This document shows positions 7,371 to 26,001 of a DNA stretch of 64,000 nt, one piece after another (within the stretch, counting starts at the first letter, position 1; the number at the start of each line of letters is the position of its first letter). This DNA is from a virus (Duplodnaviria > Caudoviricetes). The stretch spans positions 30,514-94,513 of the IMG/VR virus record IMGVR_UViG_2867207765_000001. One strand, given 5' to 3'. The notes below the pieces were generated by a model that saw only the letters and a program-made list of their open reading frames with translations, searched no databases and had not been told where the DNA came from. Both the position numbers and the translations under genes were made by a program.

Positions 7371-7437
7371 GCCGTCCCCTATGCCTGCGACATCGGATGA
7401 GAAGGGCGGGCCGCCGCGCCCAACAACTGAGCGGCTT

Positions 7438-7800: not shown

Positions 7801-7907
7801 ATGCTTCCGGCCGTCGGACAGGTTCTGCTGCCGACAGCCGGACCGTTCCACTGATCGGCTCAGTGGGAAGCCTCCCCACTCCTATGCAGGGTGGGGACGT
7901 TCAGCCG

Positions 7908-8969: not shown

Positions 8970-8976
8970 GGCTCTT

Positions 8977-8986
8977 CTATGCGCGG
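8977..8986 (-). promoter_or_regulatory. CCGCGCATAG element-specific promoter motif (example; leaderless start of the RNA ligase)
   Basis: CGCA lies exactly 10 nt before ATG 8969 with no SD; the motif and close variants recur more than 20 times. Confidence 0.65.
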
Positions 8987-9021
8987 AGTTCGGCGCTGCA
9001 ATGCAACAGCAGCTGGCGGGA

Positions 9022-9372: not shown

Positions 9373-9415
9373 AACCGATCTGTGTGCGGCAGCCAGCCGG
9401 CGGTGCCGATGGGGC

Positions 9416-10195
9416 CTACTTCTCCGGCCGGGTGAGGCGGTACAGGGTGCAGTCGCCGCGTCGGACGGTGACGGAGTCGCCGTCGAGGTCCTCCTCGAGA
9501 AGGCCGCGGCGGACCAGGGAGTCCACGGTCTCCTGGTTGTAGCAGTACGCGTCGTCGCCGATCATGGCGTGCCCGGACCGGTGCCCGTCGACGACGTATA
9601 CGCGGCCGCGGCCGTACTTGTCGGCGAACTCGAGTGCGTCCTTCGCGACGGCGGAGACGCCTGAGTCGCGCGGCTTCCACTTCGGCGGTGTGTAGAACTG
9701 CACGGCGGGGAAGGACGTGGCGAACCGCTGCCCGGCGAGCGGCCCGTCCTGGAACTCCCATGGCGTTGGGTCGTACGTCTCGCCCTTCCGGAGGTTGCGG
9801 GATGGAGCGTCGGCGGCTGGGTCGTTCCAGTCGGCCAGCGGCAGCTCGCGCTCAGTGAAGGCGCGGAGACGGTCGCCGTCCTCAGTGAACCACGTTCCGC
9901 TGGCGGTACGGGACGCGGTGATGCGGGCGCCGGTGCCGTCCGCGTCGATGGTGACGAACTCTCCGTCAGCGGCGTCAACAGTGCCGCGGAAGGTGCGCGT
10001 GTCATCGTAGGTGTGAACGCGGACGGTGACCCGCTGGCCCTCGTGCACTCGTTCCAGGGCGACGATCCCGTGCTTGTCCGTGTTCACCATGGTGGTGCCG
10101 GCGCGCTCGAGGGTGACGGCGTCACCCGTGAACGTCTTCTCGGCGAACTTCCCGGAACGGGCGCGGGGGTGGTCGGACTCAATGAAGGCGGTCAT
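9416..10195 (-). CDS. hypothetical protein with HPR...GKF tag
   Basis: MTAFIESDHPRARSGKFAEK; shared GTWFTE(N/D)G motif. Confidence 0.8.
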   Translation of the reverse strand: MTAFIESDHPRARSGKFAEKTFTGDAVTLERAGTTMVNTDKHGIVALERVHEGQRVTVRVHTYDDTRTFRGTVDAADGEFVTIDADGTGARITASRTASGTWFTEDGDRLRAFTERELPLADWNDPAADAPSRNLRKGETYDPTPWEFQDGPLAGQRFATSFPAVQFYTPPKWKPRDSGVSAVAKDALEFADKYGRGRVYVVDGHRSGHAMIGDDAYCYNQETVDSLVRRGLLEEDLDGDSVTVRRGDCTLYRLTRPEK

Positions 10196-10215
10196 GCTCG
10201 GGATGTGCGCGGCGG

Positions 10216-10288
10216 TGCCGTTGGCGGGACTCGAACCCGCGACCTTCCGCTCCGGAGGCGGACGCTCTATCCACTGAGCTACAACGGC
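10216..10288 (-). tRNA. tRNA-Arg(CCG)
   Basis: TCCGC-CTCCGGA-GCGGA; A20. Confidence 0.95.
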
Positions 10289-10301
10289 GGGTCCTCGCAG
10301 A

Positions 10302-10835
10302 TCATGCGAGGGAGGCGTAGAACTCCCTCATCAGTTCCACGTGGGCGGGGGTAAGCCCGAGACCCGGTACGGGGGCGATGAGCAGGCTTGGCGTCGGCGT
10401 GGTGAGCGTGCGAACCTCATCGCCGTACTCGGGCACCTCAGTGTCATCCACCCACACGAACGGCCGTTCGTCGCTGGCCTGGTCGCGGAGCAGTGCGTCA
10501 CGCTTCCACAAGCCGAGTTCCCCGTCCTCCCCGCACGGGTACGGGGTGACGCGGCCGCCGGTGAGAACGCCGCGGAACTTCGGAACCAGTTTCCGCGCGA
10601 CGAGGAGGTCCTCGCACCACGACGAATGCCATACCAGCTCAACGCCGAAATCCTGAACAACCTGGTTGAGGGCGTCCAGCAGCGCGTAGGAGAAAGTGGT
10701 GTGCCGCACCATGCCGAAACCTCCGCCGAGTTTCTGCGTGACGGTGAGCTTCACCGTTTCACCAGACCAAACCCGGCCGGCGTAGTCAGCGGCGAGGCAG
10801 TCATCGACATCAAGGTACAGAACCGGTTGCGGCAT
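10302..10835 (-). CDS. HAD-family phosphatase (Swiss-Army-knife RNA-repair type)
   Basis: LYLDVDDCL, LVWHSSW, WK, FVWVDD, GLT motifs. Confidence 0.8.
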   Translation of the reverse strand: MPQPVLYLDVDDCLAADYAGRVWSGETVKLTVTQKLGGGFGMVRHTTFSYALLDALNQVVQDFGVELVWHSSWCEDLLVARKLVPKFRGVLTGGRVTPYPCGEDGELGLWKRDALLRDQASDERPFVWVDDTEVPEYGDEVRTLTTPTPSLLIAPVPGLGLTPAHVELMREFYASLA

Positions 10836-10875
10836 TCGACACGCATCCTTCCCGTGATGAGGCTGACTTTCGTTG

Positions 10876-10949
10876 TCCGGATGACAGGATTTGAACCTGC
10901 GACCTCCCGCTCCCAAAGCGGGCGCTCTACCAAACTGAGCTACATCCGG
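10876..10949 (-). tRNA. tRNA-Pro(TGG)
   Basis: CCCGC-TTTGGGA-GCGGG. Confidence 0.95.
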
Positions 10950-10972
10950 ATAGTCCCGCCACAGCGGAACCG

Positions 10973-11045
10973 TGGACCTGATCGGATTCGAACCGACGAC
11001 ATCTGCCTTGCAAAAGCAGCGCTCTACCAACTGAGCTACAGGCCC
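10973..11045 (-). tRNA. tRNA-Ala(TGC)
   Basis: Loop TTTGCAA; G3:U70. Confidence 0.95.
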
Positions 11046-11427
11046 GTAACCTACCGAGGCAGGCTGATGGTCAGAAGTACACGGCGAACCGGTGGTGAAC
11101 ACGATGTCTCCTCGGTTGGCGTGCACCACCTCTATGCGCGGAAGAACCAGTCGGCGGGGCTCAGTCGCCGACGAGCGCTTGGAGCGCTGCGCCGCGCTCA
11201 GCGGCACGAGCCAACGCGTCCGCGCGGATCGCCGCCCACCGCCGCTTCCACACCATCCGATGAACTCCGTCCGCTCGCCGGTGCGGCTGCTTCGGCCAGA
11301 AGGCGATGGCCTCCGGGGAGCGCCGTGAGGCAAGGAGACGACGAGCAGACCGACGCATGCTCAGGAGGATGCGGCGACGTCGGCAGGGTCGGCGGTAAGT
11401 TCACAGGCTTCGCGCGTCGCGTTGGGA

Positions 11428-12135
11428 TTAGTGGCCGACCGTTTCAATCGCTTGGAGTTCCTTCTCGCAAAGCTCTAGGCTTCGCTGCGCAGCGGCGCAG
11501 ATGCCTTCAAATAGCACGGCGAACGCGACCGCGCCAGCGGTACTTAGTGGGTGGGATGCCTTGGCTTCTCGCATGGCAGATCCCCACTCGTCGTCGATAC
11601 GCAGGTTGCGATTGACGAAGCGATTCCCCACCGCTGCCAGAGTACCGTCCTCTGTCGCTAGTCCACGATCCGATATCGCCATCCCGAGATCTATGCCGGT
11701 GTCCAACATCGTGCGTGCTCTCTCGAACGCGTTTTGGAACCGAGTTAAAGCGTCCGATCTTCGGATGCTTTCGTCGTACTCGTCCCGGCGATCTAGGCGT
11801 TGAGCAGGCAGGTTGACTGGGGTTACGTCGCCCGCACTCGTGAATAGAAACAGCGCGACATCAGCATCAGCGGCGACTTTGAGAGCAGCCGAGGAGTAGC
11901 CGGAGCTGGAGTAGAAGATGGCATTCGCAACAGAGTGAGCGGCACCGCGTAGGCGCTGAATGTCAGGGGACCCGACGGGCTGCACCAAGTGCTTGACCTG
12001 AGCCACGGCGAGCTCCGCCCTGACGTCAATCCCACCATCCGCGCCTGACCCTGTCCGTCGAGCGTCAGTGAAGCCCAGAGCCCGCATGTGCGCCTCAGCA
12101 AGCTCCTCCGCCATCTGCCAGGTGAATATCCGCAC
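11428..12135 (-). CDS. Mrr-like restriction endonuclease domain protein
   Basis: AEELAEAHMRALGF...DGGIDV...VAQVK...SSSGYS; start uncertain; codon usage looks atypical. Confidence 0.85.
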   Translation of the reverse strand: MRIFTWQMAEELAEAHMRALGFTDARRTGSGADGGIDVRAELAVAQVKHLVQPVGSPDIQRLRGAAHSVANAIFYSSSGYSSAALKVAADADVALFLFTSAGDVTPVNLPAQRLDRRDEYDESIRRSDALTRFQNAFERARTMLDTGIDLGMAISDRGLATEDGTLAAVGNRFVNRNLRIDDEWGSAMREAKASHPLSTAGAVAFAVLFEGICAAAQRSLELCEKELQAIETVGH

Positions 12136-12277
12136 GAGGTCAACGTATCGAGTACCTCCGACCTTGTGGCCACGACAGGACTTGCGCCTGTTCCTCCGCA
12201 TTTTCTGGGCGGCGCTCTACTGCATGCGCTACGCGGCCTCAGCCGCAGATGACCGCCTGCGTGGCACGGAGGGGGTG

Positions 12278-12664
12278 TCAGTCCCAGTAGCCGCCGCCCC
12301 AGGGGCTGCGGCGGTGCCGACGGACGGGGACGGTGTCCTCGTCGATAGTGCCGGTGGCGCTCCAGCCGCCGCGCGCCCGGGCGAGGGTGACGCGGGTGTT
12401 GTGCCGGTCCGGCTTCCACCAACGCAGGTGGACGTCGTCCACGGTGCGGTGGCAGCGGTGGTGCTCCCACGCCTGGGCGACGGATCCGGCGGACCATGCC
12501 ATGGTGTGTCGGCAGTGGGGGAGGCCGCGGGATCCGGCGCGTGCGGGCCGGTCGATGTCGCACTCGGCGCGGTGGTGCTGCCACCGGGAGTGGTCCTCAC
12601 CACGCCAGTTGCGAGAATCGTTGAGAACGACCCACGTAGGGGTGTCCTTGCGTGTTCGAGACAT
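12278..12664 (-). CDS. small basic His/Cys/Trp-rich hypothetical protein
   Basis: MSRTRKDTP...; ORF lies between the nuclease and a tRNA. Confidence 0.6.
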   Translation of the reverse strand: MSRTRKDTPTWVVLNDSRNWRGEDHSRWQHHRAECDIDRPARAGSRGLPHCRHTMAWSAGSVAQAWEHHRCHRTVDDVHLRWWKPDRHNTRVTLARARGGWSATGTIDEDTVPVRRHRRSPWGGGYWD

Positions 12665-12820
12665 GAGGCGCCTGCTCTCGAACGTCACCTTCGGGTTGGG
12701 TCCCTCTGCGGGGTGACGTTCACTACAGGTCGGGGGTGCTCATAGTGTTGTCCTTTCCTTGATGAAGTAGCGGCGAGGGCGCCGCCATGGGTGGGCTGCT
12801 GGCCGGTGGGCCGGTGCATG

Positions 12821-12897
12821 TGGTTGCGGAGGCAGGATTCGAACCTGCGACCTCTGGGTTATGGGCCCAGCGAGCTACCGAACTGCTCTACTCCGCG
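12821..12897 (-). tRNA. initiator tRNA-fMet(CAT)
   Basis: C1:A72 mismatch, GGG/CCC anticodon stem, CCA encoded. Confidence 0.95.
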
Positions 12898-13088
12898 GTC
12901 TGTGGTGCCACTCGACGGTGAGTGGCGGGCCGCCGGCGCTTGGGGCGCGTGTAGGCGGCGAATGTCTTCTCGCAGACGGAGTCGGCCATTGCCTGCTCGT
13001 CTGGGATGTCGGATACGTTGCGGAGGTCATCAAGCAGATGCATGAGTTCCTCCGCCTCTTTCTCAGTGAGGCTGATGCTGACGCTCAC
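12888..13088 (-). CDS. small hypothetical protein
   Basis: GGAG RBS + GTG, SISLTEKEAEELMHLLDDL; stop overlaps the tRNA 5' end. Confidence 0.5.
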   Translation of the reverse strand: MSVSISLTEKEAEELMHLLDDLRNVSDIPDEQAMADSVCEKTFAAYTRPKRRRPATHRRVAPQTAE

Positions 13089-13110
13089 ATCGCTCCTGAC
13101 TCCGTGCCGG

Positions 13111-13183
13111 TACCCCCAACGGGATTCGAACCCGTGCGACCGCCTTGAAAGGGCGGCATCCTTGGCCGCTAAATGATGGGGGC
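13111..13183 (-). tRNA. tRNA-Glu(TTC)
   Basis: CCGCC-CTTTCAA-GGCGG. Confidence 0.95.
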
Positions 13184-13252
13184 GTAGGGGCCGGCGTTGC
13201 CGCCGGCCGTTGTCACCTCTATGCGCGGAGGTGGACGCGTGGTGTGCGAAAG

Positions 13253-13325
13253 CAGCCCGTACCGGATTCGAACCGGTGTTACCTGGCTGAGAACCAGGCG
13301 TGCTTGGCCACTGCACTAACGGGCC
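13253..13325 (-). tRNA. tRNA-Glu(CTC)
   Basis: CCTGG-TTCTCAG-CCAGG. Confidence 0.93.
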
Positions 13326-13335
13326 AGGGCGCCGT

Positions 13336-13695
13336 TCAGTAGGGCGCGTTCTCGGAGGACTTCACGATGCTGTGCACCGAGCTCGGGTCGGTGTGGAACG
13401 TCGGGCACTCCGACTTGGGGAGTGACAGGCGGAGCACCTTTCCGCACCTGCTGCACGCTTCCTCGTGGTAGCAGGTCCAGTCGCGGTCACGTCCGAACAG
13501 GTAGTCGAACGTTCCTGGACGGGGGAGCCCGCACGTGTAGACGCGGGTCCACCGGGTGTTGATGCGGATGATGGGGGTGTGCTCCCGGCCGACGTGGCCC
13601 TTGCACCACCGCTTCGTGTTCTTCCGCCGGTGCGGGGTGTGCTTCCACGCGTCGTCAGCGGGACGCTCCGTGGCGGTGGACTGCAGTGTCGTCAT
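13336..13695 (-). CDS. small basic Cys/His protein (possible Zn binder)
   Basis: RBS GAGGAGG; WCKGHVGREH...C...CYHEEACSRCGK. Confidence 0.7.
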   Translation of the reverse strand: MTTLQSTATERPADDAWKHTPHRRKNTKRWCKGHVGREHTPIIRINTRWTRVYTCGLPRPGTFDYLFGRDRDWTCYHEEACSRCGKVLRLSLPKSECPTFHTDPSSVHSIVKSSENAPY

Positions 13696-13731
13696 GACGG
13701 GCCTCCTCGGCGATGTTCGGATGAGTGGGGG

Positions 13732-13804
13732 CTCCCCGTCGAGGATTCGAACCTCGACCTACCGGCTCCAAAGGCCGACGTGCTGCCAGTTACACCAACG
13801 GGGA
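13732..13804 (-). tRNA. tRNA-Gln(TTG)
   Basis: U1:A72; loop CTTTGGA. Confidence 0.93.
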
Positions 13805-13840
13805 ATAGGCGCCACGGACGGCGCCAAGGTGATGTTGCGG

Positions 13841-13913
13841 CTCCCCGCCAAGGATTCGAACCTCGACTTACCTCGACCAGAACGAGGCGTGCTGCCAGTT
13901 ACACCAACGGGGA
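13841..13913 (-). tRNA. tRNA-Gln(CTG)
   Basis: CCTCG-TTCTGGT-CGAGG. Confidence 0.93.
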
Positions 13914-13992
13914 TCAGACAGATGCTTTACGTCGGCCGTCATTCCGACGTGGTACCGACGCTTCCGGCCGAGGATCCATGGCGTCGGCGTTG

Positions 13993-14045
13993 TGCCTCTC
14001 GGGGGACTCGAACCACCCGTGACCCTCCACGCCAACTAGCGAGGC
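13993..14045 (-). ncRNA. miniature or degenerate tRNA-like element (acceptor + T arm, single middle hairpin)
   Basis: GCCTCGC...GGTGG-TTCGAGT-CCCCC-GAGAGGC-A; ends resemble the neighbouring tRNA-Arg(ACG). Confidence 0.45.
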
Positions 14046-14175
14046 GTGCTTCCACACCACCGAAGCTCCTCGACGCCGTTCGCGGCCGACGCCGTCCGAG
14101 ATACCGGAGATCAGCCCGGCATCCGGTTGTGTCGCGCCGGGGCGCTGCATTGCGCTGCACGCCGGCATGACAGCG

Positions 14176-14248
14176 TGCCCCTCGAGGGATTCGAACCCCC
14201 GACTCCCGCATCCGTAGTGCGGTGCTCTATCCACTGAGCTAGAGAGGC
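14176..14248 (-). tRNA. tRNA-Arg(ACG)
   Basis: CCGCA-CTACGGA-TGCGG. Confidence 0.95.
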
Positions 14249-14366
14249 ATACGAGACGAACACCATGCGTCGGTCATCGCGGTGGTTGGACGACGGCAGC
14301 TGTTCCGTCCCAACCCGTGCAGATTCTGCTTCCACGCCGAATAGATACTGCCTAGATGACTCGTCG

Positions 14367-14423
14367 TGGCCGGTCCGGAATCGACCCGGAACCATCACGG
14401 TCAGCGTTGAACGCCATCCGGCC
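14367..14423 (-). ncRNA. 57-nt miniature cloverleaf
   Basis: GGCCGG/CCGGCC-A acceptor, GGCGT-TCA-ACGCT, ACC-GTGAT-GGT, TCCGG-GTCGATT-CCGGA. Confidence 0.45.
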
Positions 14424-14448
14424 TGCCCACCGACTGGTGGGCGTTGCG

Positions 14449-14533
14449 GGTGAATGAGGGGAATCGAACCCCCACGCCCTTCCGGGCACCGGACTCACAT
14501 TCCGGCGCGGCTACCAATTACGCCACATCCACC
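14449..14533 (-). tRNA. tRNA-His(GTG) with long variable arm
   Basis: G-1:C73, CCGGA-ATGTGAG-TCCGG, V-arm GCCC-GGAA-GGGC. Confidence 0.88.
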
Positions 14534-14556
14534 ATGGAGACGCTGCGCGTCTCTCG

Positions 14557-14628
14557 CTCCCCGACAAGGATTCGAACCTCGACTAACTGGACCAGAACCA
14601 GTCGTGCTGCCATTTACACCATCGGGGA
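14557..14628 (-). tRNA. tRNA-Gln(CTG), second copy
   Basis: ACTGG-TTCTGGT-CCAGT. Confidence 0.93.
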
Positions 14629-14889
14629 ATGTCTCCTCCGTCCGGGCACGGGCGGGGGAGAGGTGCCGTCTCAGCGTGTCGAGACGGCGGGTGTCTGGCA
14701 TGTCGGAACGCCCATGATGAGGGGCTTCCCGGCGTGGTCCGGACGTTCATGTTCAGCGGCCGGTGGCAACCGACCATCACGCTGCTGTGACCGGGTTGTA
14801 CGGGCTGTACCGGTCGGCAAACGCCCTTGCCAGGACGTCCCGTGTCCCGCCGACTGGCCGAGGTTCGGGCCTCGCGTCGTGCGGTGTTG

Positions 14890-14962
14890 TCGCGCCGGGA
14901 GGTATCGATCCTCCGACCTACGGGTTATGAGTCCGCCGCTCTACCATCTGAGCTACAGCGCG
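14890..14962 (-). tRNA. tRNA-Met/Ile2(CAT), elongator type
   Basis: Paired C1:G72, loop CTCATAA, atypical T-loop ATCGATA. Confidence 0.85.
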
Positions 14963-14974
14963 TCGTGTGTTGCG

Positions 14975-15060
14975 TGCCCGATGCCGGGGTCGAACCGGCA
15001 CGCCCGTTTCCGGGCACAGACCCCTCAAGCCTGCGTGTCTACCGGTTCCACCAACCGGGC
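14975..15060 (-). tRNA. tRNA-Leu(GAG)
   Basis: Loop TTGAGGG, long V-arm. Confidence 0.93.
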
Positions 15061-15066
15061 ATCGTG

Positions 15067-15149
15067 TACCCGCCGCGGGACTTGAACCCGCACGCCCTTT
15101 TGGGCACCGGCACCTAAGGCCGGCGCGTCTGTCATTTCGCCAGGCGGGC
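15067..15149 (-). tRNA. tRNA-Leu(TAG)
   Basis: CCGGC-CTTAGGT-GCCGG, long V-arm. Confidence 0.92.
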
Positions 15150-15182
15150 AAGAACACCGGCCCGGGTCGGGTCCGTGTTCGG

Positions 15183-15269
15183 TTAGACCGTGACGCCGAG
15201 GTTCTCGAGGAACTCCGCAACGTCGTTGGTCAGGATGTAGTCGTCCTGCGTGTCGTCGTCCACGGTCAC
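15183..15269 (-). CDS. 28-aa acidic microprotein
   Basis: GTGA overlap with the upstream stop; MTVDDDTQDDYILTNDVAEFLENLGVTV. Confidence 0.45.
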   Translation of the reverse strand: MTVDDDTQDDYILTNDVAEFLENLGVTV

Positions 15270-15493
15270 TCCGGCTTCATCAGCTGGTAGATCTCCGCGC
15301 ACTCCGGGCAGACGGGGAAGTTCTTCGGGTCCTTCGTTGGCAGCCACACCTTCCCGCAGAGGGCGGTGGCGGGCTTGCCTTCCAACCAGATGAGGTCGAA
15401 GTCGGTCTTCTTCACGTAGTGGGAGAACAGGTCGTGGTCACCGGTGTCGGTGGTCTGCTCGAGCTGCTGACGCTCGAGGAGGTCGCTGGCCAT
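15266..15493 (-). CDS. DUF3039-family Zn-binding protein
   Basis: GDHDLFSHYVKK...ALCGKVWLP...PVCPEC; RBS GAAAGGA. Confidence 0.88.
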   Translation of the reverse strand: MASDLLERQQLEQTTDTGDHDLFSHYVKKTDFDLIWLEGKPATALCGKVWLPTKDPKNFPVCPECAEIYQLMKPE

Positions 15494-15550
15494 TCGGGGT
15501 CCTTTCGTTGACGTGACTCCTATGCGCGGAACCGGTGATTCGGTGGTGTG

Positions 15551-15637
15551 TGCCCGCCGCGGGAGTCGAACCCGCACGCCCCTCCCGGGGGCGGCGCATT
15601 TTGAGTGCGCTGCGTCTACCTGTTCCGCCAGGCGGGC
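15551..15637 (-). tRNA. tRNA-Leu(CAA)
   Basis: GCGCA-CTCAAAA-TGCGC, long V-arm. Confidence 0.95.
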
Positions 15638-15644
15638 GAAGATG

Positions 15645-15733
15645 CGGGCACGGCAGGATTCGAACCTGCGGGACGTGTTGCCACGTCCGCCGGCTTAGCA
15701 AGCCGGAGCGATCAGCCTCTCCGCCACGTGCCC
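15645..15733 (-). tRNA. tRNA-Ser(GCT)
   Basis: CCGGC-TTGCTAA-GCCGG, long V-arm, G73. Confidence 0.93.
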
Positions 15734-15866
15734 GAGGTGCCCTGGCAGTTAGCGAGGTGCCGCTCGCCCTGACAGCATCCGGGTCCAGATGTCCGAGGCG
15801 GGTCGACCGTCGCTACTCGGCAGGGAGCCGACCGGAACACGTTCCGGTCTCACCCTGGTCTCACTG

Positions 15867-15955
15867 CGGGAAGGGAGGGATTCGAACCCTCGAGACGGCT
15901 TGCACCGTCTACCGCCTTTCCAAGGCGGCGCAATCGACCGCTATGCGACCTCCCC
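15867..15955 (-). tRNA. tRNA-Ser(GGA)
   Basis: CCGCC-TTGGAAA-GGCGG, long V-arm. Confidence 0.93.
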
Positions 15956-15983
15956 AAGGTGGCGAGCTGAAGCCCGCCACGAC

Positions 15984-16511
15984 CTACTCGTCGTCGTCGG
16001 AGACGGACGAGAAGGAGTTCTCCTCCTCATCCTCGTCGACGCTGCTGCCGCCGCCGGAGTTCTCGTCCTCATCGACGCTGCTGCCACCGCCGGAGTTCTC
16101 GTCCTCATCCGGGTCCGAGTACGTCGATGACTGCTCGTCGTCCTCCTCGTCCGCGGAGCCGACAGCACCGGACTTCGACACGGCGCCACCGGTGGACGGG
16201 ATGCCCGTCGTGACCGAGGAACCGGACGGGATGCTCTTCGTTCCCGACCCGTACGACGACCCGACAGCGGGAACGGTCGCACCGTACGGGTAGAAGTACC
16301 ACAGGAACGCGGCGTCGCCGCTTGTCGAGGGTGTCGCCGAGCAGTTCGAGTCAGCGACACGCTTGTGCGTCGTCTTCGCTACGCACGCTTCCGCGTACGA
16401 GTGAGGAGTGGTGGTGCTGCAGGCGGTGGTGCCGAGGAGGAGCAGCGCCGTGCCGGCGACGACGGTGAAGATGGTGCCGCCGCGGGTGGAGCGGAGCCGA
16501 TGTGTGTTCAT
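15984..16511 (-). CDS. lipoprotein with acidic repeat tail
   Basis: Lipobox TTAC; leaderless start 10 nt after CGCA; DEDENSGGGSSV twice. Confidence 0.8.
   Translation of the reverse strand: MNTHRLRSTRGGTIFTVVAGTALLLLGTTACSTTTPHSYAEACVAKTTHKRVADSNCSATPSTSGDAAFLWYFYPYGATVPAVGSSYGSGTKSIPSGSSVTTGIPSTGGAVSKSGAVGSADEEDDEQSSTYSDPDEDENSGGGSSVDEDENSGGGSSVDEDEEENSFSSVSDDDE
16036..16108. repeat. 36-bp tandem duplication in coding tail
   Basis: tcgacgctgctgcc(g/a)ccgccggagttctcgtcctca twice. Confidence 0.8.
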
Positions 16512-16550
16512 GCTGCCTCTATGCGCGGCAGGGGACCGCGGGTGAGCGGT

Positions 16551-16941
16551 TGGTGGACCCGGGGGGAGTTGAACCCCCGTCTTCCGTGACTGAACGAAGC
16601 CTTCTACGTGCGTAGTTCACCGTGGGCTGCTTTTCGACCTCGGCGTCTGCGGTGAACAGCGCGGCCGGCAGGTCTAGACACAATGGTGATGACGGTCCGG
16701 GGTGTGCCCAACCGGGTCGTCATGGTCGTCTGCTGCTGACCCCGACACCGCGGGCGAAACCGTTCCCGTTGCGGTGTGCGAGGGACTCGCCATGAGTCTC
16801 GCGCGCATCAAGCGGCGAGGGCGTAGTCGGTGCGAGAAGCGTTGGCATCTCTTGGTGGACGGTCTGATTGGCGAGGTGGCCGTCCAACCCTCGGCACGCT
16901 TCTCATCGAAGCAACCCACGGAATCGAAACCCGTCGAGCCC
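16551..16941 (-). ncRNA. ssrA: tmRNA
   Basis: 5' GGGCTCGACGGGTTTCGA, 3' GGGGGTTCAACTCCCCCCGGGTCCACCA with G3:U70; tag frame ANASRTDYALAA* at 16808-16846. Confidence 0.95.
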
Positions 16942-17034
16942 GGAGCTGGGCGACCGTAACGGCGTCGCCCGTGAACCCGCACTGCTGCGGGTACCGCAAC
17001 CCACCCTTGGCAAGCCCGGGTGGGGAAGAATTGT

Positions 17035-17260
17035 GGTGGCAGCCGATTCCCGTACGGCCGCTCGGCCGAGCGTCGATAGGCAGCAACGGTCATGCGGAGG
17101 CCACTCTCCGTCGCGCAGCTGCTCGGTGGGAAGCGTCGGTGCGCAGGTCGTCCGCTGCAGGGGTCGAGAGGGCCGGAAAGCAAGCGCTAGATTCCCCCAG
17201 TCCGCCTTCGCGAGCCGTTGCATTTGCTTCCCTTGCCCGCGTTGACGCACCGACACATTC
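17035..17260 (-). ncRNA. unidentified structured RNA between tRNA-Thr and tmRNA
   Basis: Nested long-range stems 17246-17254/17135-17143 and 17224-17232/17175-17183; ends in CCACCA. Confidence 0.45.
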
Positions 17261-17262
17261 CG

Positions 17263-17334
17263 AGCCCCGAGTCGGGATTGAACCGACGACCCCCGCCTTA
17301 CCATGGCGGTGCTCTACCACTGAGCTATCGGGGC
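17263..17334 (-). tRNA. tRNA-Thr(GGT)
   Basis: CCGCC-ATGGTAA-GGCGG. Confidence 0.95.
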
Positions 17335-17589
17335 ATGCGCCGGAGACCGAAGCCTCGGCGACTGGGATCCGGCCGACCACGGCCGCATGAGCCGTCGAAC
17401 CCGGATCAGACCGTTCGGCACGGGCCCTCCCGCGGCGGCGATGACCGCTTCCGGGAACAGGGGCGTGCCAGTCACGGCAAGGTGATGCGCCTGGGAGAGG
17501 TAGACGAGCGCGGTCAGCTTCTTCGGCTGCCGGCGGAGCGTCGGGTCGCGCAGCAGCAGGTACTCGGCGACCGTTTCGGACTTCGTCAT
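17314..17589 (-). pseudogene. truncated Panacea/SocA (DUF4065)-like antitoxin
   Basis: VAEYLL...KKLTALVYLSQAHHLAVTGTPLFPEAVIAAAGGPV resembles the family N-terminus; frame then runs into a tRNA. Confidence 0.6.
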
Positions 17590-17620
17590 CCGCTCGTTCC
17601 TCTCTCGTTGGCGGCTGGTG

Positions 17621-17688
17621 TGGTTCCCCAGGGGCTCGAACCCTGCAGAGCTGGTGTGTAAGACCTGCTTGCGCCCTGCGCGAGAACC
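17621..17688 (-). tRNA. atypical short tRNA-Val(TAC) with minimal D-arm
   Basis: GGTTCTC/GGGAACC-A, D hairpin GCGC-AGG-GCGC, loop CTTACAC, CAGGG-TTCGAGC-CCCTG. Confidence 0.7.
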
Positions 17689-17797
17689 AGGTGCCGAATC
17701 GCGGGAGGAGGCCGTCACGCCTCCGCCCGCGTTCACCGAGTTGCGCGGAGTGACGATAGCGCGCGGTCCGGCATCGGGATGTTCGACGCATCCCTCG

Positions 17798-17872
17798 AGC
17801 CGCCTGTCGGATTTGAACCGACGGCCCTCCGCTTACAAGGCGGACGCTCTGGCCAAACTGAGCTAAGGCGGC
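17798..17872 (-). tRNA. tRNA-Thr(TGT)
   Basis: TCCGC-CTTGTAA-GCGGA. Confidence 0.95.
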
Positions 17873-17875
17873 ATG

Positions 17876-18288
17876 TGGGCCAGGAGGTGGACTTGAACCA
17901 CCAACTACGTCGTCGTCGCGGGAGCGACCCGCGCCGGCACGTCGTAGCGCTCCGACTGTCTCTGTGATGATGAACCAGGGCTAGCGCCTGCATCACGGAG
18001 CAGAAGGACCAGGTGTACCGTTTACCGATCCTGGCAGAGCCCGTTTCGCGCAGCCGCGGGCATTCGGCTTGCCGGGACCTATCAACCCGGCTCCAGTGCG
18101 AGCGCTTGCAGGAGTTTCACGTCCGAGGGCGTGTGGAGCCTGCCACTCCAAGTAGGCGACTGCGAAGCCGTACCGGTTGCCCGGCACCCGGCCTTCCCGA
18201 CCGGGCCACCCTGTACGTGGGTGTAACTGCGCCGCGGGCCTAGAACTCCGCGGCGTCAGAAGGCAACCCGTCGGCGCCATCCTGATCG
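17876..18288 (-). ncRNA. large structured RNA, GOLLD-like
   Basis: ~410 nt of hairpins inside the tRNA array, ending in T-arm GGTGG-TTCAAGT-CCACC, closed by GATCAGGA/TCCTGGCC; family assignment from memory, not searched. Confidence 0.6.
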
Positions 18289-18297
18289 CAATCTCGG

Positions 18298-18372
18298 CTC
18301 CCCCGGGAGGGCTCGAACCTCCAAAACCTCCGAGTTAACAGCTCGGCGCTCTGCCAATTGAGCTACAGGGGA
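18298..18372 (-). tRNA. tRNA-Asn(GTT)
   Basis: U1:A72, CCGAG-CTGTTAA-CTCGG. Confidence 0.93.
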
Positions 18373-18560
18373 ATACTCCGCCCCAGCGCATCGGGACGGG
18401 AAGGTAGTGCAGGGTCTCCCACCCCACGTCGCGGACGCTGGGTTGGTCGTGATGCACATGGTTGACAGCGACCTGCGGTAACAGGTCGTGCGCTGCTGCG
18501 GCCGGACTGTACGGGGTGTACCGGCGCTGCGATCCGCCTTTTACCGAGGCGTCCCGTGAG

Positions 18561-18632
18561 TGGTCAGGGGAGGAGTTGAACCTCCGACTTCCGTCTTATC
18601 AGGACGGCACTCTTCCGCTGAGTTACCCGACC
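18561..18632 (-). tRNA. tRNA-Ile(GAT)
   Basis: CCGTC-CTGATAA-GACGG. Confidence 0.93.
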
Positions 18633-18640
18633 AAGGTGCG

Positions 18641-18713
18641 TGCCCCCACTTGGACTTGAACCAAGGACTCGCCGGGTAAGAGCCGGCTGCTCTACCAACT
18701 GAGCTATAGAGGC
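18641..18713 (-). tRNA. tRNA-Lys(CTT)
   Basis: GCCGG-CTCTTAC-CCGGC. Confidence 0.93.
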
Positions 18714-18821
18714 GAAGGTCGACAGGTCCGTGTGCGGTGTTCGGGCGGGTAGCCAACCGCCGTGCTTTCGAGTGCACGCTGACCACACGGTCCTGTCTGA
18801 CGGGATGTACGGTCCCGTTTG

Positions 18822-18894
18822 AGCGGTAAGCGGGGCTCGAACCCGCGACATCCACTTTGGAAGAGTGGCGCTCTACCAGCTGAGCTATTACCGC
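18822..18894 (-). tRNA. tRNA-Gly(TCC)
   Basis: CCACT-CTTCCAA-AGTGG, U73. Confidence 0.95.
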
Positions 18895-18914
18895 GAACAC
18901 GCCGTGGCGTGTGA

Positions 18915-19026
18915 GCTTGAACGTTCCGACCAGGATTCGAACCTGGGAATGCCAGCGCCGTGCACAGCGAACTGGTCGCCAACGCCACGCGTCGGCTCGT
19001 GCTCCTCTCGGCTTCGGAACGTCAAG
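18915..19026 (-). ncRNA. tRNA mimic: perfect T-arm and extended acceptor stem, no canonical anticodon arm
   Basis: CTTGA-CGTTCCGA ... CCAGG-TTCGAAT-CCTGG-TCGGAACG-T-TCAAG. Confidence 0.55.
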
Positions 19027-19056
19027 TGTGTGCGACGGCTGGTCGGGCCGTCGAAG

Positions 19057-19146
19057 TGGCGGGTGGTGAGGGATTTGAACCCCCGTCCCGTTCGCACGGG
19101 ATGCGGTTTTCAAGACCGTCGCATTCGGCCGCTCTGCCAACCACCC
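19057..19146 (-). tRNA. tRNA-Ser(TGA)
   Basis: Loop CTTGAAA, long V-arm, GCCA end. Confidence 0.93.
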
Positions 19147-19241
19147 AAGTCTGGCCGCCGAGTTCCTGCCTCGGCGGCGCACGGCTTTCGGGACCCGGAT
19201 GCCGTGCCCGGTGTGAACGCCCCAACTAGCGCGTCCCCGTG

Positions 19242-19333
19242 CGGAGGGCGTGGGAGTCGAACCCACACGCGGAGGTGGAACCCCGCAGTCCGATTTCGAA
19301 TCGGGTGCCGCCGACCAATCGGCTGGGCCCTCC
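19242..19333 (-). tRNA. tRNA-Ser(CGA) with Sec-like extended D-stem
   Basis: Loop TTCGAAA; D-arm GCCGA-TTGG-TCGGC; long V-arm. Confidence 0.88.
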
Positions 19334-19420
19334 AACACTCACCGTTGATCTTCCTCAGCCCCACACCGCGTCTGGACCCGCTGGGGGATGCGCTCACGGT
19401 GAGCACGTGGGGGAGTGCAG

Positions 19421-19494
19421 CGACCCTGACCGGACTTGAACCGGCGACCTCCGCCTTGACGGGGCGGCGCTCTCACCAGCTGAGCTACAGGGCC
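19421..19494 (-). tRNA. tRNA-Asp(GTC)
   Basis: CCGCC-CCGTCAA-GGCGG, G73. Confidence 0.92.
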
Positions 19495-19517
19495 GAGACC
19501 GCCGCGGACGCGACGGC

Positions 19518-19605
19518 TGGTGGGTGGTGAGAGATTCGAACTCCCGAGGGGGCGAACCCCGCCTGGTTTACAGCCAGGTGCCATCGGCCTCTAGGCGAAC
19601 CACCC
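19518..19605 (-). tRNA. tRNA-Tyr(GTA)
   Basis: CCTGG-CTGTAAA-CCAGG, V-arm, ACCA. Confidence 0.95.
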
Positions 19606-19973
19606 AGGACCGACGCCCTGGTGGACGCCGGTGTTGGTGGCTTCGAGCCGTGGCCTCGAGGTGATGGCAGGGGTGGCGGGGGTTGCGATGATGTGCGTCC
19701 CGGTCGCCGGTCGTGCCGTCGGTGAGGTCACGGCTCGAAGCCGTGTGTTGTGTCTTGCACTGTGGAGTTCCGAAGACCCGCGAGGGGTGCTGTGCCCGTG
19801 GCGGCGGTGAGCGTGGTGCTCGTTTCCGTTGCCGGCTCTACCTCTATGCGCGGAGGTTGGAGACGGCGGGAGGCAGGTTCCCTGGCGGCTTCGTACCTCG
19901 CACAGTGACACACGCCGGACCTGGTGAAGTCCGACGTTCCAGGGGCCGGTCGGTAAGGGCCGGCCCCTGTTGT

Positions 19974-20002
19974 TGTCTTGCGCTGTGGAGTTCTCAAAAT
20001 GC
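19974..20002 (-). promoter_or_regulatory. rrn-type boxA-like antitermination sequence
   Basis: GCATTTTGAGAACTCCACAGCG resembles the actinobacterial rrn leader TTTGAGAACTCAACAG; second copy at 19751-19775. Confidence 0.5.
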
Positions 20003-20024
20003 GTCGCCATCTGGTGGCGATAGG

Positions 20025-20097
20025 CAGGGGTGACAGGACTCGAACCTGCAACTCGCGGTTTTGGAGGCCGCTGCTCTTCCAGTTGAGCTACACCCCT
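20025..20097 (-). tRNA. tRNA-Trp(CCA)
   Basis: AGGGGTG acceptor, loop CTCCAAA. Confidence 0.94.
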
Positions 20098-20457
20098 ATG
20101 TCGTGATCTTCGCGTTGCTGCTGGAAACAACAAACGAGGCGGGGACTTCCAGTTCCGTGAAGCGTGTCGGCTTCGGTCCTGGAGGTCCCCGCCTCGTGGA
20201 AGAGTGCGGGCCGTCTGGGCTTACATGCCGTTCACCTGGAACTTCGCCTGGTAATCGGGGGTCGAGCAGTTCTGCCATTCGTTGCCGTTCGGCGTCATGG
20301 CAGCGCGCAGCACACGACCGGAGTCGTGTCGCTGGATCAAGAGCGCTGACATGAGATGCCTTTCGGACAGAGCGGGTGGACCGCAGGAATGCGAACGGTC
20401 GACAATGTAGCGTCGACGTCCGACTTCGCCAAACATTACGGCGTGTCGCGCGGGAAG

Positions 20458-21906
20458 TTAGGCTTCGGCGGGACCCTTGTACGCCTCGTCGGGGACGTTC
20501 AGCAGGTCGAAATGCTGGAACGTTTCCGGCTGCTGTTCCGCGGGTGCGATGACGTCATCGAACGCGGGAATGGGAGCGGCCGGGGGAACGGGAAGCGGCA
20601 GCGGCGACCCGTCGATAGCGGACGGAACCGTCGCCGAAGAAGGTGTCGCCGCTGGGAACGTCCACGCCTGCTCCGCGTCGGACACTGCCGCTGGGGCGGG
20701 GGATGCCTCCGGGAACGTCCACGTGGGCTCCGCGTCGGGTTCCGGCGCCGGAGAGGTCTCCTCCGTGGTGGGGGCCGGCACGTCGACAGGGGCTGCGGGA
20801 GCGGGTTCCGTCAGGTACGCGAGCGCTTCCTCCGCACGGGCCTGCAGCACCTCGTCGGACTCTGCCTCGGCAAGCCCTTCGACCGGAGCGTTCACGTCGT
20901 AGTTCAGCTCGATGAGCGGTGCGTTGTAGTCCTCGCCGGAGCTCTGACCCCCGAGGTCGTACGAACCGAACTGGAAGGTCTCGTCCGGCGGGGTGACACC
21001 GAGCCCTTCGAAGTCCGTGGCGGAGAACCCGAACTGCGCACCATCCCACGGAGCGGCCTCGGACGGCTGAACCAGCGGCGCGTCGACGTGGAACGGCTCC
21101 GCCACCACGGGGAAGTCCGGGATCGGGGCGGGAGCGACCGGGTCGAGGCTGACGGGGAACGCCGGACCGTGCTCATCCGGGAACTGCGGAACGTCGACGG
21201 GAGCCGAGCCGGTGAACGGGTCCTGTCTGTCGAACGGAGTCTGGCCCGGGAACGACGACGGGAACGGTTCGGCGTCAGCGAACGCCGACGGCTGCGGCGC
21301 TTCGGGCTGCTCCGGGGCGGACTTCCGCAGCACGTCCAGGTTCGCGTCGCCGAACAGCGCCGAAGCGGGCAGCGGCGTACCGAACGCCGGATGCGTGTAC
21401 GCGTCACCCGCGTCGATGAGGCCAAGCTCCACGGCAGCGCCAAGCAGCGTCCCGCGAAGCGGTTCGTCGACCTCCGGGCCCGGGGCGGCCAGCACCGTCC
21501 CCTCCTCGAGGAGAGACGGATGCTCCACGGCGACCGCCGCAGCGATGGGGGACTCCGCGGCGGCGGCAGACACCAGCGCCTTCGCCCGTGCCGTCACCTC
21601 CTCATCGAGAGCCCGGATCTGCTCGAGGACCGCTGACTCCTGCGACCAGTCGAGGACCACCTCGGCGATGTGCTGCGGAACGGCGGGGATCCCGAACCGG
21701 GCATCCACCTCCGTCCGGTACGCGTCAGCATCGACGCCGAGCAGCGCCGCTGCAAGCCGGGACACGGGAATGCGGACCGGCGGGTCGCTGAGCTTGTTCT
21801 CCAGCACCCATCCACGGCCGTGCAGGAGCAGATGCGCGAGGTTCGTGGCGAGCGGGTTGGAGCTCCGGAGCTCGTCGATCTTGTCGTGCTCGGGGGTGTT
21901 GGACAC
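20458..21906 (-). CDS. hypothetical protein with long acidic Pro/Ala/Phe-rich disordered C-terminus
   Basis: ORF 20458..22248, GTG 21906 with GAAAGG RBS and CGCATAG at ~21963. Confidence 0.75.
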   Translation of the reverse strand: MSNTPEHDKIDELRSSNPLATNLAHLLLHGRGWVLENKLSDPPVRIPVSRLAAALLGVDADAYRTEVDARFGIPAVPQHIAEVVLDWSQESAVLEQIRALDEEVTARAKALVSAAAAESPIAAAVAVEHPSLLEEGTVLAAPGPEVDEPLRGTLLGAAVELGLIDAGDAYTHPAFGTPLPASALFGDANLDVLRKSAPEQPEAPQPSAFADAEPFPSSFPGQTPFDRQDPFTGSAPVDVPQFPDEHGPAFPVSLDPVAPAPIPDFPVVAEPFHVDAPLVQPSEAAPWDGAQFGFSATDFEGLGVTPPDETFQFGSYDLGGQSSGEDYNAPLIELNYDVNAPVEGLAEAESDEVLQARAEEALAYLTEPAPAAPVDVPAPTTEETSPAPEPDAEPTWTFPEASPAPAAVSDAEQAWTFPAATPSSATVPSAIDGSPLPLPVPPAAPIPAFDDVIAPAEQQPETFQHFDLLNVPDEAYKGPAEA

Positions 21907-22081
21907 GTCGTGCCTTTCGGGGCGGTTGTGCGGCATGCGGCGCCGGTGGCGGTCAGAGGGTTCTATGCGGCGGAACCGGGCCCTGTCGCACCGCCCAGCT
22001 CCGCACGGAACCGCTTCCTGAGCAGCGGTCGCGTATGGCAGGATTCGGGGCACGCGTGAGGCCCGACCCGAACGGAAGCTC

Positions 22082-24742: not shown

Positions 24743-25591
24743 TCAGATGGGCAGAGCGATGTTGAACCGCTCCTGCAGGACGGTGCGGGTGATGGTGCGA
24801 GCGGTTCCGAGGAGGTCGGATGCTTTGTCCTGACGGATGTGGAGGGTGCGGGCGATCTCGGTGACGGTGCCCATCGCCGGCGGTTCGCTGTACAGGTCGC
24901 CGAGCCACACCTCGGCGGTCTTGCCCAGTTCGCTGGAATGCTCGAAGCAGGTTTCGATGGCGAGTTCGACGAGCTCGCGACCTTCGATAGGGGAGATGAC
25001 GTAGTCGTCCTCTTCGACGGCGCGGTCGTGGTCGGCGATGTCGGCCACGGGGAGCACCCCGTCAAGGTCGGTCAGTTCGACGAGGACGCCCTGCTTCTCC
25101 GGGTTGGAGCGGCGGGCACGCATCTGCTCGTTCGCGGCGTCAACGATCTCGGTTCGCTCCGGCTCCCGGCCGAGCTTCTTCCGAAGGTCCTCCCGGACGC
25201 GGGCGATGTGGCGCTGCTTCCGCTGCAACGCGACCATGCCGCTTGCCGCGGTCACTTCGGAGCTGTTGAAGTACGCCAGCGCCGCGTACCGGCTGATGCC
25301 GTTCAGGTACGAGTACCAGGCTTCGACCTTGTCGTGCTTGCCGGGAAGCACCGCTTCGCGGAGCACCTCGAGGGTGCGTTCCGCGATGACGCTGATGACG
25401 TCGTCGCGGTGGCTGCCGTACACGTCGCCGGAGTGACGTCCGAGGGTGCGAGCCCACTGCTGGAAGTGGGGAAGCATGTACCGGAGGACCTTGTCCTCGA
25501 CGCGGCGTCGCGCGGTCTGGTTGGGAGCGGTTCGCAGCTCGTCGATCATGACGGCGAGTTCTGCGGAGTACCGCTTGCTGTCGGCGGTCAA
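24743..25591 (-). CDS. divergent sigma-70-family RNA polymerase sigma factor
   Basis: Region-2-like DDVISV...WYSYLNGISRYAALAYF, region-3-like LRKKLGREPERTEI, C-terminal HTH TVTEIARTLHI; TTG start overlaps the upstream stop. Confidence 0.7.
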   Translation of the reverse strand: MTADSKRYSAELAVMIDELRTAPNQTARRRVEDKVLRYMLPHFQQWARTLGRHSGDVYGSHRDDVISVIAERTLEVLREAVLPGKHDKVEAWYSYLNGISRYAALAYFNSSEVTAASGMVALQRKQRHIARVREDLRKKLGREPERTEIVDAANEQMRARRSNPEKQGVLVELTDLDGVLPVADIADHDRAVEEDDYVISPIEGRELVELAIETCFEHSSELGKTAEVWLGDLYSEPPAMGTVTEIARTLHIRQDKASDLLGTARTITRTVLQERFNIALPI

Positions 25592-26001
25592 CGGGTTCCC
25601 CCTGAGATGCGGGCTGGTCGAGGTGTGAACGGGAAGCCGGGCCATGGGGTGGCGGAGTTGTTCCCGAGGGCGTCGCAGAACGCCATGAACCGGCGGCCGC
25701 CGGCGCGGGCGTCGAGCAGCCAGGCGATGGTGAACTTCCGTGGAGCGACGTCGGAGCCGGTGAGATGCAGCACATGCCGGGTGATGCGGGCGACCGTTTC
25801 GTCGCCGACGCCGGGCTGGGCGAGCAGCAGCTGCTTGAGGGTGATGCGCAGCAGCGGCTTCCCGTTGGGCTTGCAGGCGAGGCGGATGACGTCGTGGACG
25901 CTCGCCCGGCCGGTGGCGACGTGCATCAGTGCGGTGGCGCGGAGGTGCCGGGCGGCGGCGCGGGCACTGTTCGCGTCAGCCAGCGGCGGGCGGACGTTCA
26001 T
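25588..26001 (-). CDS. mihF: actinobacterial integration host factor (mIHF)-like H2TH protein
   Basis: ARAAARHLRA...GRASVHDVI...LKQLLLAQPGVG matches the mIHF pattern. Confidence 0.65.
   Translation of the reverse strand: MNVRPPLADANSARAAARHLRATALMHVATGRASVHDVIRLACKPNGKPLLRITLKQLLLAQPGVGDETVARITRHVLHLTGSDVAPRKFTIAWLLDARAGGRRFMAFCDALGNNSATPWPGFPFTPRPARISGGTR

Follow-up and report, generated by a model that had tools for sequence, protein, structure and literature searches.

A conserved spacer in the tRNA array of Curtobacterium megaplasmids as a probable two-module structured RNA locus with a tRNA-like 3′ part

We analyzed a 64,000-nt stretch (the window) of the IMG/VR virus record IMGVR_UViG_2867207765_000001, and in it a 423-nt spacer between two transfer RNA (tRNA) genes at 17873-18295 on the minus strand. 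The comparison of this spacer with its homologues established, at the level of sequence, that it is conserved, that its predicted structure covaries in a strand-specific manner, and that it has a tRNA-like core. The spacer is probably a lineage-specific, two-module structured non-coding RNA locus that is matured by the tRNA-processing machinery. From the anatomy of the two modules, an ornate 5′ domain and a tRNA-like 3′ module, we infer the processing sites, the number of products (one or two), and any function. An earlier note on this DNA had read most of the spacer as a single RNA of ~410 nt, resembling the GOLLD RNAs and closed by a tRNA-like acceptor and T arm.

Structure and conservation of the spacer

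The source record is a 94.5-kb IMG/VR 'provirus' that also codes for DnaE, RtcB (25116-26318 of the record), a Thg1-like protein (15678-16598 of the record), an RNA ligase, and NAMPT. The array in the window extends over 4109-20097 and has 34 tRNA genes and one transfer-messenger RNA (tmRNA) gene (16551-16941), all encoded on the minus strand; the candidate spacer lies inside the array on this same strand. The candidate and the adjoining 599 nt, the two stretches that were compared, are 100% identical to D40, a circular plasmid of 607,661 bp from Curtobacterium sp. MCBD17_040. This identity places the array either on a megaplasmid as such or in a phage-like region of one. The tmRNA of a sister plasmid, pCPAA3, is already in print (PMC10832533).

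The spacer is non-coding, and codon-position GC, annotation, and indels agree in this with the earlier note, which had seen no credible ORF in the stretch. Its longest open reading frame (ORF) encodes 95 aa (17993-18280, minus strand), with GC contents of 0.69, 0.72, and 0.60 at the three codon positions, and lacks the third-position bias of the three real window genes compared with it (GC3 of 0.81-0.92). The PGAP annotation has no coding sequence (CDS) over the candidate on D40 and none within the corresponding spacer of plasmid pS16 (L013 2999-3428), and the indels in the alignment of the three homologous spacers are mostly not multiples of three.

The terminal T arm that the same note had recognized, GGTGG-TTCAAGT-CCACC, was recovered by a strict T-arm scan of the window. 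All of its 36 sites lie within the array on the minus strand, the plus strand having none, and therefore the T arm of the candidate is not a chance match. Annotated tRNAs or the tmRNA account for 33 of the 36 sites; the other three are orphans, the candidate T arm among them, and it is the sole orphan T arm in each homologous locus.

Exactly three PLSDB records carry the element, namely the Curtobacterium megaplasmids D40, pS16, and pCPAA3; the last of these, from C. pusillum, was reached through a neighbouring 492-aa protein. The homologues are syntenic, all at the Asn-X-Thr(UGU) position, and the order in the pCPAA3 array is Trp, Tyr, Asp, Ser, Ser, Ile, Asn, a 443-nt gap, Thr(UGU), Val, Thr(GGU), and tmRNA. 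Blastn aligned the pCPAA3 homologue at 82% identity over query nt 2-293. Between lineages, the sub-domains of the 5′ domain have identities of 0.74-0.81, to be compared with 0.56-0.66 for ordinary spacers and 0.87-0.88 for the tmRNA.

Beyond plasmids, blastn found the element in one of 70 Curtobacterium genomes, the host of pCPAA3, and the neighbouring protein was present in one of 401 genomes of the order. A covariance model built here (R1) gave one strong match among 151 Microbacteriaceae genomes, together with three weak ones (17-24 bits) without nearby tRNAs, and only a 14.7-bit match in five other actinobacterial tRNA-bearing plasmids. Blastn searches of cultured phages, with the candidate and a 3.8-kb array segment as queries, returned tRNA matches only, and no homologue was found in IMG/VR by four scans with DNA or protein patterns or with DnaE as an anchor. 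A metagenome scan with an invariant 19-mer returned 32 stretches, all of them chance matches that extended for 20-30 nt in mostly unrelated coding contexts. Text searches of the literature gave nothing on the candidate RNA.

The last 159 nt of the spacer (18035-17877) were called by ARAGORN, with introns allowed, as a 'tRNA-Glu(ctc), 68-nt intron'; without the intron option no call was made on this module. The acceptor stem GCCAGGA/TCCTGGC has 7 of 7 pairs (100% paired) and becomes GCCGGGA/TCCCGGC in the homologues, with one compensatory change from A-U to G-C, while the T stem GGTGG/CCACC becomes GGCAG/CTGCC. Over both stems, 12 of 12 pairs are kept in the three homologues (100% paired) with three compensatory changes, which bears out a tRNA-like 3′ part. 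All three copies have the same order, that is, acceptor, D region, arm A, arm B, UU, T arm, and acceptor, and the D region carries the invariant AAACGGTACACC, which includes GG.

The place of the anticodon and variable arms is taken by arm A (61-63 nt across copies) and arm B (43-48 nt), whose sequences are nearly unalignable between lineages and whose architecture is kept. At the base of arm B (CUA/UAG vs. UCA/UGA) and at its apex, pairing is maintained through two-sided changes, read by eye and uncounted. The apex loop of arm A is self-complementary in every copy (GCTAGC in D40, ACTAGT in pS16 and pCPAA3), and a conserved 7-nt anticodon loop was not found across the three. With two long irregular hairpins where the anticodon and variable arms would be, the module is unable to decode. 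In a tRNA, the half that RNase P and the CCA-adding enzyme recognize comprises the acceptor and the T and D 'elbow'. This mimic keeps the 7-bp acceptor, the T loop, and the D-loop GG of the 'elbow', and has lost decoding.

The 5′ domain starts 3 nt past tRNA-Asn, ends 3 nt ahead of the tRNA-like module, and is made of two self-closed sub-domains. We found that 97.0% of its 234 cells are paired and that 7 pairs are changed on both sides; controls with slid partners gave 33-39% paired cells and 0-2 such pairs, and none of 500 shuffles reached the values of the domain. Substitutions and gaps are concentrated in the unpaired columns: 28 of 158 paired columns are variable vs. 36 of 114 unpaired ones, and gaps occur in 3 paired vs. 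11 unpaired columns. There are 23 G-U against 3 A-C combinations, and the fold is therefore specific to the minus (tRNA) strand. When the Trp-Tyr spacer of the array was compared in the same way as a control, many pairs were broken and the covariation term was positive (+5.35). Covariation among homologues, proposed in the earlier note as a check, is thus present in the three copies, with 7 compensated pairs in the 5′ domain and 3 in the acceptor and T stems.

In sub-domain 1, a closing helix (GAYTGCGA/TCGCAGTC) and an inner helix surround five hairpins, one of which is the invariant tetraloop hairpin CCGG-GCAA-CCGG (18172-18185); the sub-domain also has an invariant block of 36 nt (alignment columns 110-145). 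Sub-domain 2 has a 4-bp closing helix, a long arm topped by a covarying hairpin, the hairpin GCCGGG-TTGATAGGT-CCCGGC (18071-18091) with its invariant 9-nt loop, and one more hairpin. Both of the hairpins spelled out here had been named in the earlier note, and two others from the same list, CGCCGCGG/CCGCGGCG and GCTACG/CGTAGT, are likewise kept in the homologues. The helix GGGTTGCC/GGGCAACC, which appears in the minimum free energy fold of the single sequence, was rejected; its 5′ strand changes to GGGCGTCC and GGGTGATT in the homologues, uncompensated.

The single RNA of ~410 nt closed by the acceptor stem was not supported. The true partner of TCCTGGC is GCCAGGA at 18035-18029, and therefore the acceptor closes only the last 158 nt. 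The proposed pairing of the 5′ and 3′ ends, GATCAGGA/TCCTGGCC, which reads GACCAGGT/TCCCGGCT in the homologues, has 70.8% of its cells paired, unpaired cells in 3 of 8 pairs, and no compensatory change. Nor was there support for the idea that the spacer at 18374-18560 might be the 5′ part, as a full tRNA-Asn intervenes, the overall identity between lineages is 0.56-0.62, and the first ~100 nt of that spacer form separate conserved hairpins.

For RNA data, three RNA-seq runs from the same study were used as Logan contigs, which give neither RNA ends nor strand. Contigs with 100% identity cover 17941-18142, 18158-18398, and 18154-18311, and the parts of the candidate without contig cover (e.g., 18143-18153) are evidence of nothing. 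The candidate is present in the RNA libraries, with no sign of the abundance of the ROOL RNAs. A 188-nt contig of run X4 (depth 19.7) reads 18258-18311 and then 18154-18287, which corresponds to a 158-nt circle with a 30-nt overlap. In RNA sense, the junction connects 18154 (sub-domain 1 ends 4 nt before it) with 18311, a position in the T loop of tRNA-Asn. RNA circularization or ligation, a chimera of the library, or an artefact of assembly might explain it; it was unseen in X2, in X3 from the same sample, and in the DNA run.

Table 1. Features of the candidate locus and its boundaries (window coordinates)
Feature	Position	Strand	Basis or remarks
tRNA-Asn(GUU)	18296..18372	-	Upstream boundary; same neighbour on pCPAA3 and pS16
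5′ ornate domain	18039..18293	-	255 nt, 13 helices, 79 base pairs, self-closed; RNAalifold on three homologues
Sub-domain 1	18158..18293	-	Helices 1-7; compensatory changes in helices 3, 4, and 5
Sub-domain 2	18039..18157	-	Helices 8-13; two compensatory pairs in helix 11, one (G-C to A-U) in helix 12
tRNA-like module	17878..18035	-	158 nt; ARAGORN with introns allowed; four-arm fold common to three homologues
Acceptor stem of the module	18029-18035 / 17879-17885	-	7 bp, GCCAGGA/TCCTGGC
D region with GG	18011-18028	-	tRNA-like module
Arm A	17948-18010	-	tRNA-like module
Arm B	17905-17947	-	tRNA-like module
T arm	17886-17902	-	tRNA-like module
Discriminator C	17878	-	tRNA-like module
tRNA-Thr(UGU)	17797..17872	-	Begins 5 nt past the tRNA-like module; same neighbour on pCPAA3 and pS16

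Proposed maturation and rival explanations

In the mechanism that we propose, the locus would be transcribed within a polycistronic tRNA precursor. RNase P would cleave at tRNA-Thr and at the first nucleotide of the mimic (G1, 18035), the 3′ side of tRNA-Asn would be trimmed, and these steps would release a discrete RNA of ~255 nt and a long-armed tRNA-like RNA of ~158 nt. Some long RNAs likewise have their 3′ end marked by a tRNA-like element. The mimic could serve processing or stability as a handle, could engage a factor specific for the acceptor or the elbow as its decoy or docking site, or could do both; the 5′ domain would be the effector.

A bolder proposal, which we hold to be speculative and rather doubtful, is that the ornate domain and the non-decoding mimic are made together as a new class of mobile-element RNA that acts on the tRNA and translation machinery. 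Such an RNA might offer a decoy or a platform for docking, either to defence nucleases that target tRNAs or to the repair set of the plasmid (RtcB, the Thg1-like protein, and the RNA ligase). By analogy with GOLLD and ROOL, it might instead be a self-assembling RNA that uses palindromic loops (arm A apex, GCUAGC or ACUAGU). If this were true, the locus would be a functional analogue of GOLLD and ROOL with an independent origin in Curtobacterium megaplasmids.

Several points weigh against a two-module RNA locus. The comparative set has three sequences from two lineages, with pS16 and pCPAA3 0.86-0.89 identical over the spacer, and the structure was derived from the same three sequences as the pair counts, so that the counts lean towards it. 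The z scores of single-sequence folding are unremarkable for the whole stretch (minus strand, -1.6; plus strand, -2.3) and weak for the 5′ domain (-1.6) and the tRNA-like module (-2.45); the support for the structure comes from comparison and not from energy. Between the modules, RNAduplex on 15 unpaired segments found only the pairing GCUCC/GGAGC, which is invariant and therefore beyond a covariation test. The Ile-Asn spacer, another in this array, also has conserved hairpins, so structured spacers may be general in it. The contig depth of the locus is low, 4.4-19.7 vs. 241-444 for the tmRNA located 1 kb away (1.5-8% of tmRNA), and is in a range comparable to that of a neighbouring small ORF (5.5-8.5). 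Because one RNA contig bridges tRNA-Asn, precursor or contaminating DNA could account for these contigs.

The low, mRNA-like depth, the contig that runs through tRNA-Asn, and the conserved hairpins of other spacers would also be expected if there were no discrete functional RNA here. The locus would then be a decayed tRNA gene with hairpin expansions, and its hairpins would be signals for the processing or stability of the precursor (sites for RNase E, RNase III, or RNase P). The other aberrant tRNA-like elements of the array (17620-17688 and 18922-19020) and the fast evolution of the mimic arms fit this as well. We regard it as unlikely, although it deserves real weight. A domain of 255 nt and 13 helices with 97% pairing, 7 compensated pairs, and an invariant block of 36 nt far exceeds a processing hairpin; the Trp-Tyr control spacer gave many broken pairs and a positive covariation term; and acceptor and T stems that are perfect and compensated in both lineages are unlike those of a decaying pseudogene. 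It is improbable, in turn, that the tRNA-like module is an interrupted pre-tRNA whose large insert would be excised, for example with the RtcB ligase of the plasmid, to give a decoding tRNA, possibly for Phe or Val. The intron-mode call of ARAGORN suggests such a gene, the source record has RtcB, a Thg1-like protein, and an RNA ligase, and ARAGORN called no tRNA-Phe or tRNA-Val in the window. However, the Rfam models for group I introns and tRNA had no match at E ≤ 10, a G-G mismatch in the putative anticodon stem is invariant, the two lineages have different would-be anticodons, and a conserved 7-nt anticodon loop is lacking. Moreover, the same ARAGORN mode calls an 'intron tRNA' inside the coding region 60246-60664, and the Val slot is taken by the degenerate element at 17620-17688.

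The setting would be right for a compact or strongly diverged GOLLD (or ROOL): both lie near tRNA islands of phages and prophages, and GOLLD co-localizes with large Mycobacterium tRNA clusters (10.1101/2024.12.08.627333 and PMC9569102). The presence of GOLLD in tRNA islands, a premise of the earlier note, is in print in these two papers. A '~430 nt structured RNA' is described from ~81% of Mycobacterium tRNA arrays in PMC5966550, the 416 positions of the GOLLD model RF02032 are near the ~420 nt found here, and the three plasmids have no other GOLLD or ROOL. This membership is nonetheless very improbable, as the models matched neither the candidate nor its homologues, although RF02032 gave no positive control; RF02032 is presumably the model that finds the Mycobacterium copies. 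We give hardly any credence to a second, degenerate tmRNA-like gene. The true tmRNA is 1 kb away and similar in size, and the 9-mer CGACGGGTT occurs near the 5′ end of both. Against this, the Rfam tmRNA models had no match, ARAGORN found no tmRNA by default and, at a threshold of 80%, nothing beyond a permuted call that makes no sense, the two ends of the RNA do not pair, acceptor position 3-70 is C-G and not G-U, and the sole frame that ends before the T arm lacks, as judged by eye, the usual ...LAA end.

Other features of the array and the source record

Two further elements of the array carry orphan T arms. The one at 18922-19020 (minus strand) is a tRNA-like element of 99 nt with a perfect 7-bp acceptor (GTTCCGA/TCGGAAC), the T arm CCAGG-TTCGAAT-CCTGG, and two hairpins where the D and anticodon arms would be; no orphan T arm was found at the matching place on pCPAA3 or pS16. 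The other, at 17620-17688 (minus strand), is a 69-nt cloverleaf with the anticodon loop CTTACAC (UAC, Val) and a reduced D arm, called by neither ARAGORN nor Rfam. On pCPAA3 and pS16 a normal tRNA-Val(UAC) is located between Thr(UGU) and Thr(GGU), and the element is probably a degenerate or non-canonical tRNA-Val. Also between Thr(UGU) and Thr(GGU), a small conserved ORF (17314-17736, minus strand; PGAP CDS WP_111025104.1) matches two PHROGs of unknown function; its product may resemble Panacea/SocA-type antitoxin domains. The tRNA-His(GUG) at 14448-14532 (minus strand) has 85 nt, with an extra arm (CCCGGAAGGG) between the anticodon and T arms, and its copies on pCPAA3 and pS16 have 76 nt.

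Three other spacers on the minus strand drew attention. The first ~100 nt of the Ile-Asn spacer (18373-18559, the part at 18460-18535) are well conserved in the three plasmids and form the hairpins GCGCCGG...CCGGC and GACCTGTT..CGCAGGTC; the rest is poorly conserved. The Trp-Tyr spacer (19606-20022) contains two exact copies of GAACTCCACAGYGCA (19756-19770 and 19979-19993) and one start-associated motif (19841-19853). In one RNA run it is covered by a 400-nt contig (19619-20018) with a depth of 242, near the tmRNA level, and in the other two runs by none; it may be a small gene or another RNA. The 132-nt spacer between Ser(GGA) and Ser(GCU) (15734-15865) is 0.94-0.96 identical between D40 and pCPAA3, compared with ~0.6 for ordinary spacers, which suggests a recent exchange or another constrained element.

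The motif CCGCGCATAGRRG occurs at 16 sites of the window (299-61567), vs. 0.37 expected by chance, always on the strand of the local genes, as at 16516-16528 and 8974-8986 (minus) and 40868-40880 and 61555-61567 (plus). Several copies are located a few bases ahead of start codons, for example those of the ORFs 15984-16511, 7908-8969, 40881-41153, and 61572-63716. It looks like a start-associated or a promoter-plus-ribosome-binding sequence, and none of its 16 sites is in the candidate. For the tmRNA of pS16 (L013 4201-4591), ARAGORN gave the tag DHDDPVGRIPGRHHHCA*, which is odd when compared with ANASRTDYALAA* of D40 and ANASRNDFALAA* of pCPAA3, probably due to a mis-placed resume codon in the call. 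Upstream of the window, at 1872-3434 and 20433-21998 of the source record, two proteins of ~520 aa match PHROG 506, a transposase of the IS605-OrfB/TnpB type.

Comparison with known RNAs

A scan with 4227 Rfam models gave no match in the spacer at the gathering score. At E ≤ 10, only noise (<16 bits) was obtained on 751 nt and 423 nt around the candidate and nothing on the pCPAA3 copy, and at E ≤ 1 nothing on the pS16 and pCPAA3 copies. The models of GOLLD (RF02032; 416 positions, cut-off of 150 bits) and ROOL (RF03087; 574 positions, cut-off of 99.1 bits) had no match in the source record or in the three megaplasmids, or on the 423-443 nt of the element with the laxest filters. For GOLLD, the first stage of the search already yielded 0 candidates on the record and the plasmids. 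RF02032 also matched none of the 151 genomes of the class and none of the five other plasmids; the negatives for GOLLD and ROOL stand without a positive control. In the annotation table of the mycobacteriophage Wildcat, the only source used for that phage, the array has no suitable gap for GOLLD. The models for group I introns (Intron_gpI), tRNA (RF00005), and tmRNA (RF00023 and its clan) gave no match at E ≤ 10. Of the two options left by the earlier note, a compact GOLLD or an unnamed class, the second one agrees with these results, and the kinship with GOLLD or ROOL was not upheld.

GOLLD reportedly assembles into a homo-oligomeric nanocage, a 14-mer in which kissing loops and A-minor contacts hold the copies together, and Morgado et al. 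(2020) are said to have found it in Mycobacterium arrays and to equate it with the '~430 nt structured RNA' mentioned above. The candidate resembles it as a large multi-helix RNA of unknown function beside or inside the tRNA islands of mobile elements, with a length close to that of the model and with GNRA and conserved loops. It differs in its tRNA-like 3′ module, its confinement to three Curtobacterium megaplasmids, its low RNA depth, and the absence of a model match. The prophage or phage setting near tRNA islands is shared with ROOL too, which also has no model match here. ROOL is pseudoknotted and is reported to have an abundance on par with 16S rRNA (10.1101/2024.12.08.627333), whereas the candidate reaches 1.5-8% of the tmRNA depth.

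With tRNA (RF00005), and class II tRNA in particular, the module shares the 7-bp acceptor, U8, the D-loop GG, the 5-bp T stem with its TTCAAGT loop, a discriminator base, and an arm directly 5′ of the T arm, placed like a long variable arm. It lacks the 5-bp anticodon stem with a 7-nt loop, and its two inner arms have 61-63 nt and 43-48 nt. As in tmRNA, a true copy of which is in the same array, a tRNA-like part is joined to a large structured body. However, this part is a self-contained 3′ module and is not made by the two ends of the RNA, and both a tag frame and G3:U70 are missing.

Non-decoding tRNA mimics that are read by tRNA-processing enzymes exist in the mascRNA of MALAT1 and in the bacterial, Y-RNA-like YrlA. 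Through RNase P, an element of the mascRNA type determines where the RNA upstream of it has its 3′ end; mascRNA is eukaryotic. The ends of YrlA lie in the Ro-binding stem and not in the acceptor stem, and an rsr gene is usually close to it; those of the candidate are at the acceptor stem, and YrlA had no Rfam match here. No TROVE/Rsr protein was found among the ORFs scanned, which are part of those of the 607-kb plasmid. The manA-motif RNA of megaplasmid pMP7017 is likewise beside a plasmid tRNA array and a tmRNA in an actinobacterium; it belongs to another Rfam family, without a match here, has 178 nt, and has no tRNA-like module (PMC10832533).

Large structured RNAs (GOLLD, ROOL, manA) recur beside the tRNA islands of phages and plasmids. 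The locus also shows that tRNA-derived genes in these arrays escape both Rfam and tRNA finders run with default settings. Because the host is culturable and the plasmids D40, pS16, and pCPAA3 are complete and sequenced, deletion, Northern blots, and structural work are straightforward. We rate the candidate as an RNA class that has no name and, as far as known, a very narrow distribution; its likeness to GOLLD is confined to the setting. It adds to these RNAs an unrelated example with a clear modular anatomy, an ornate domain and a mimic reduced to the half of a tRNA that enzymes recognize, and this anatomy points to a concrete link with RNase P and the biology of tRNA ends.

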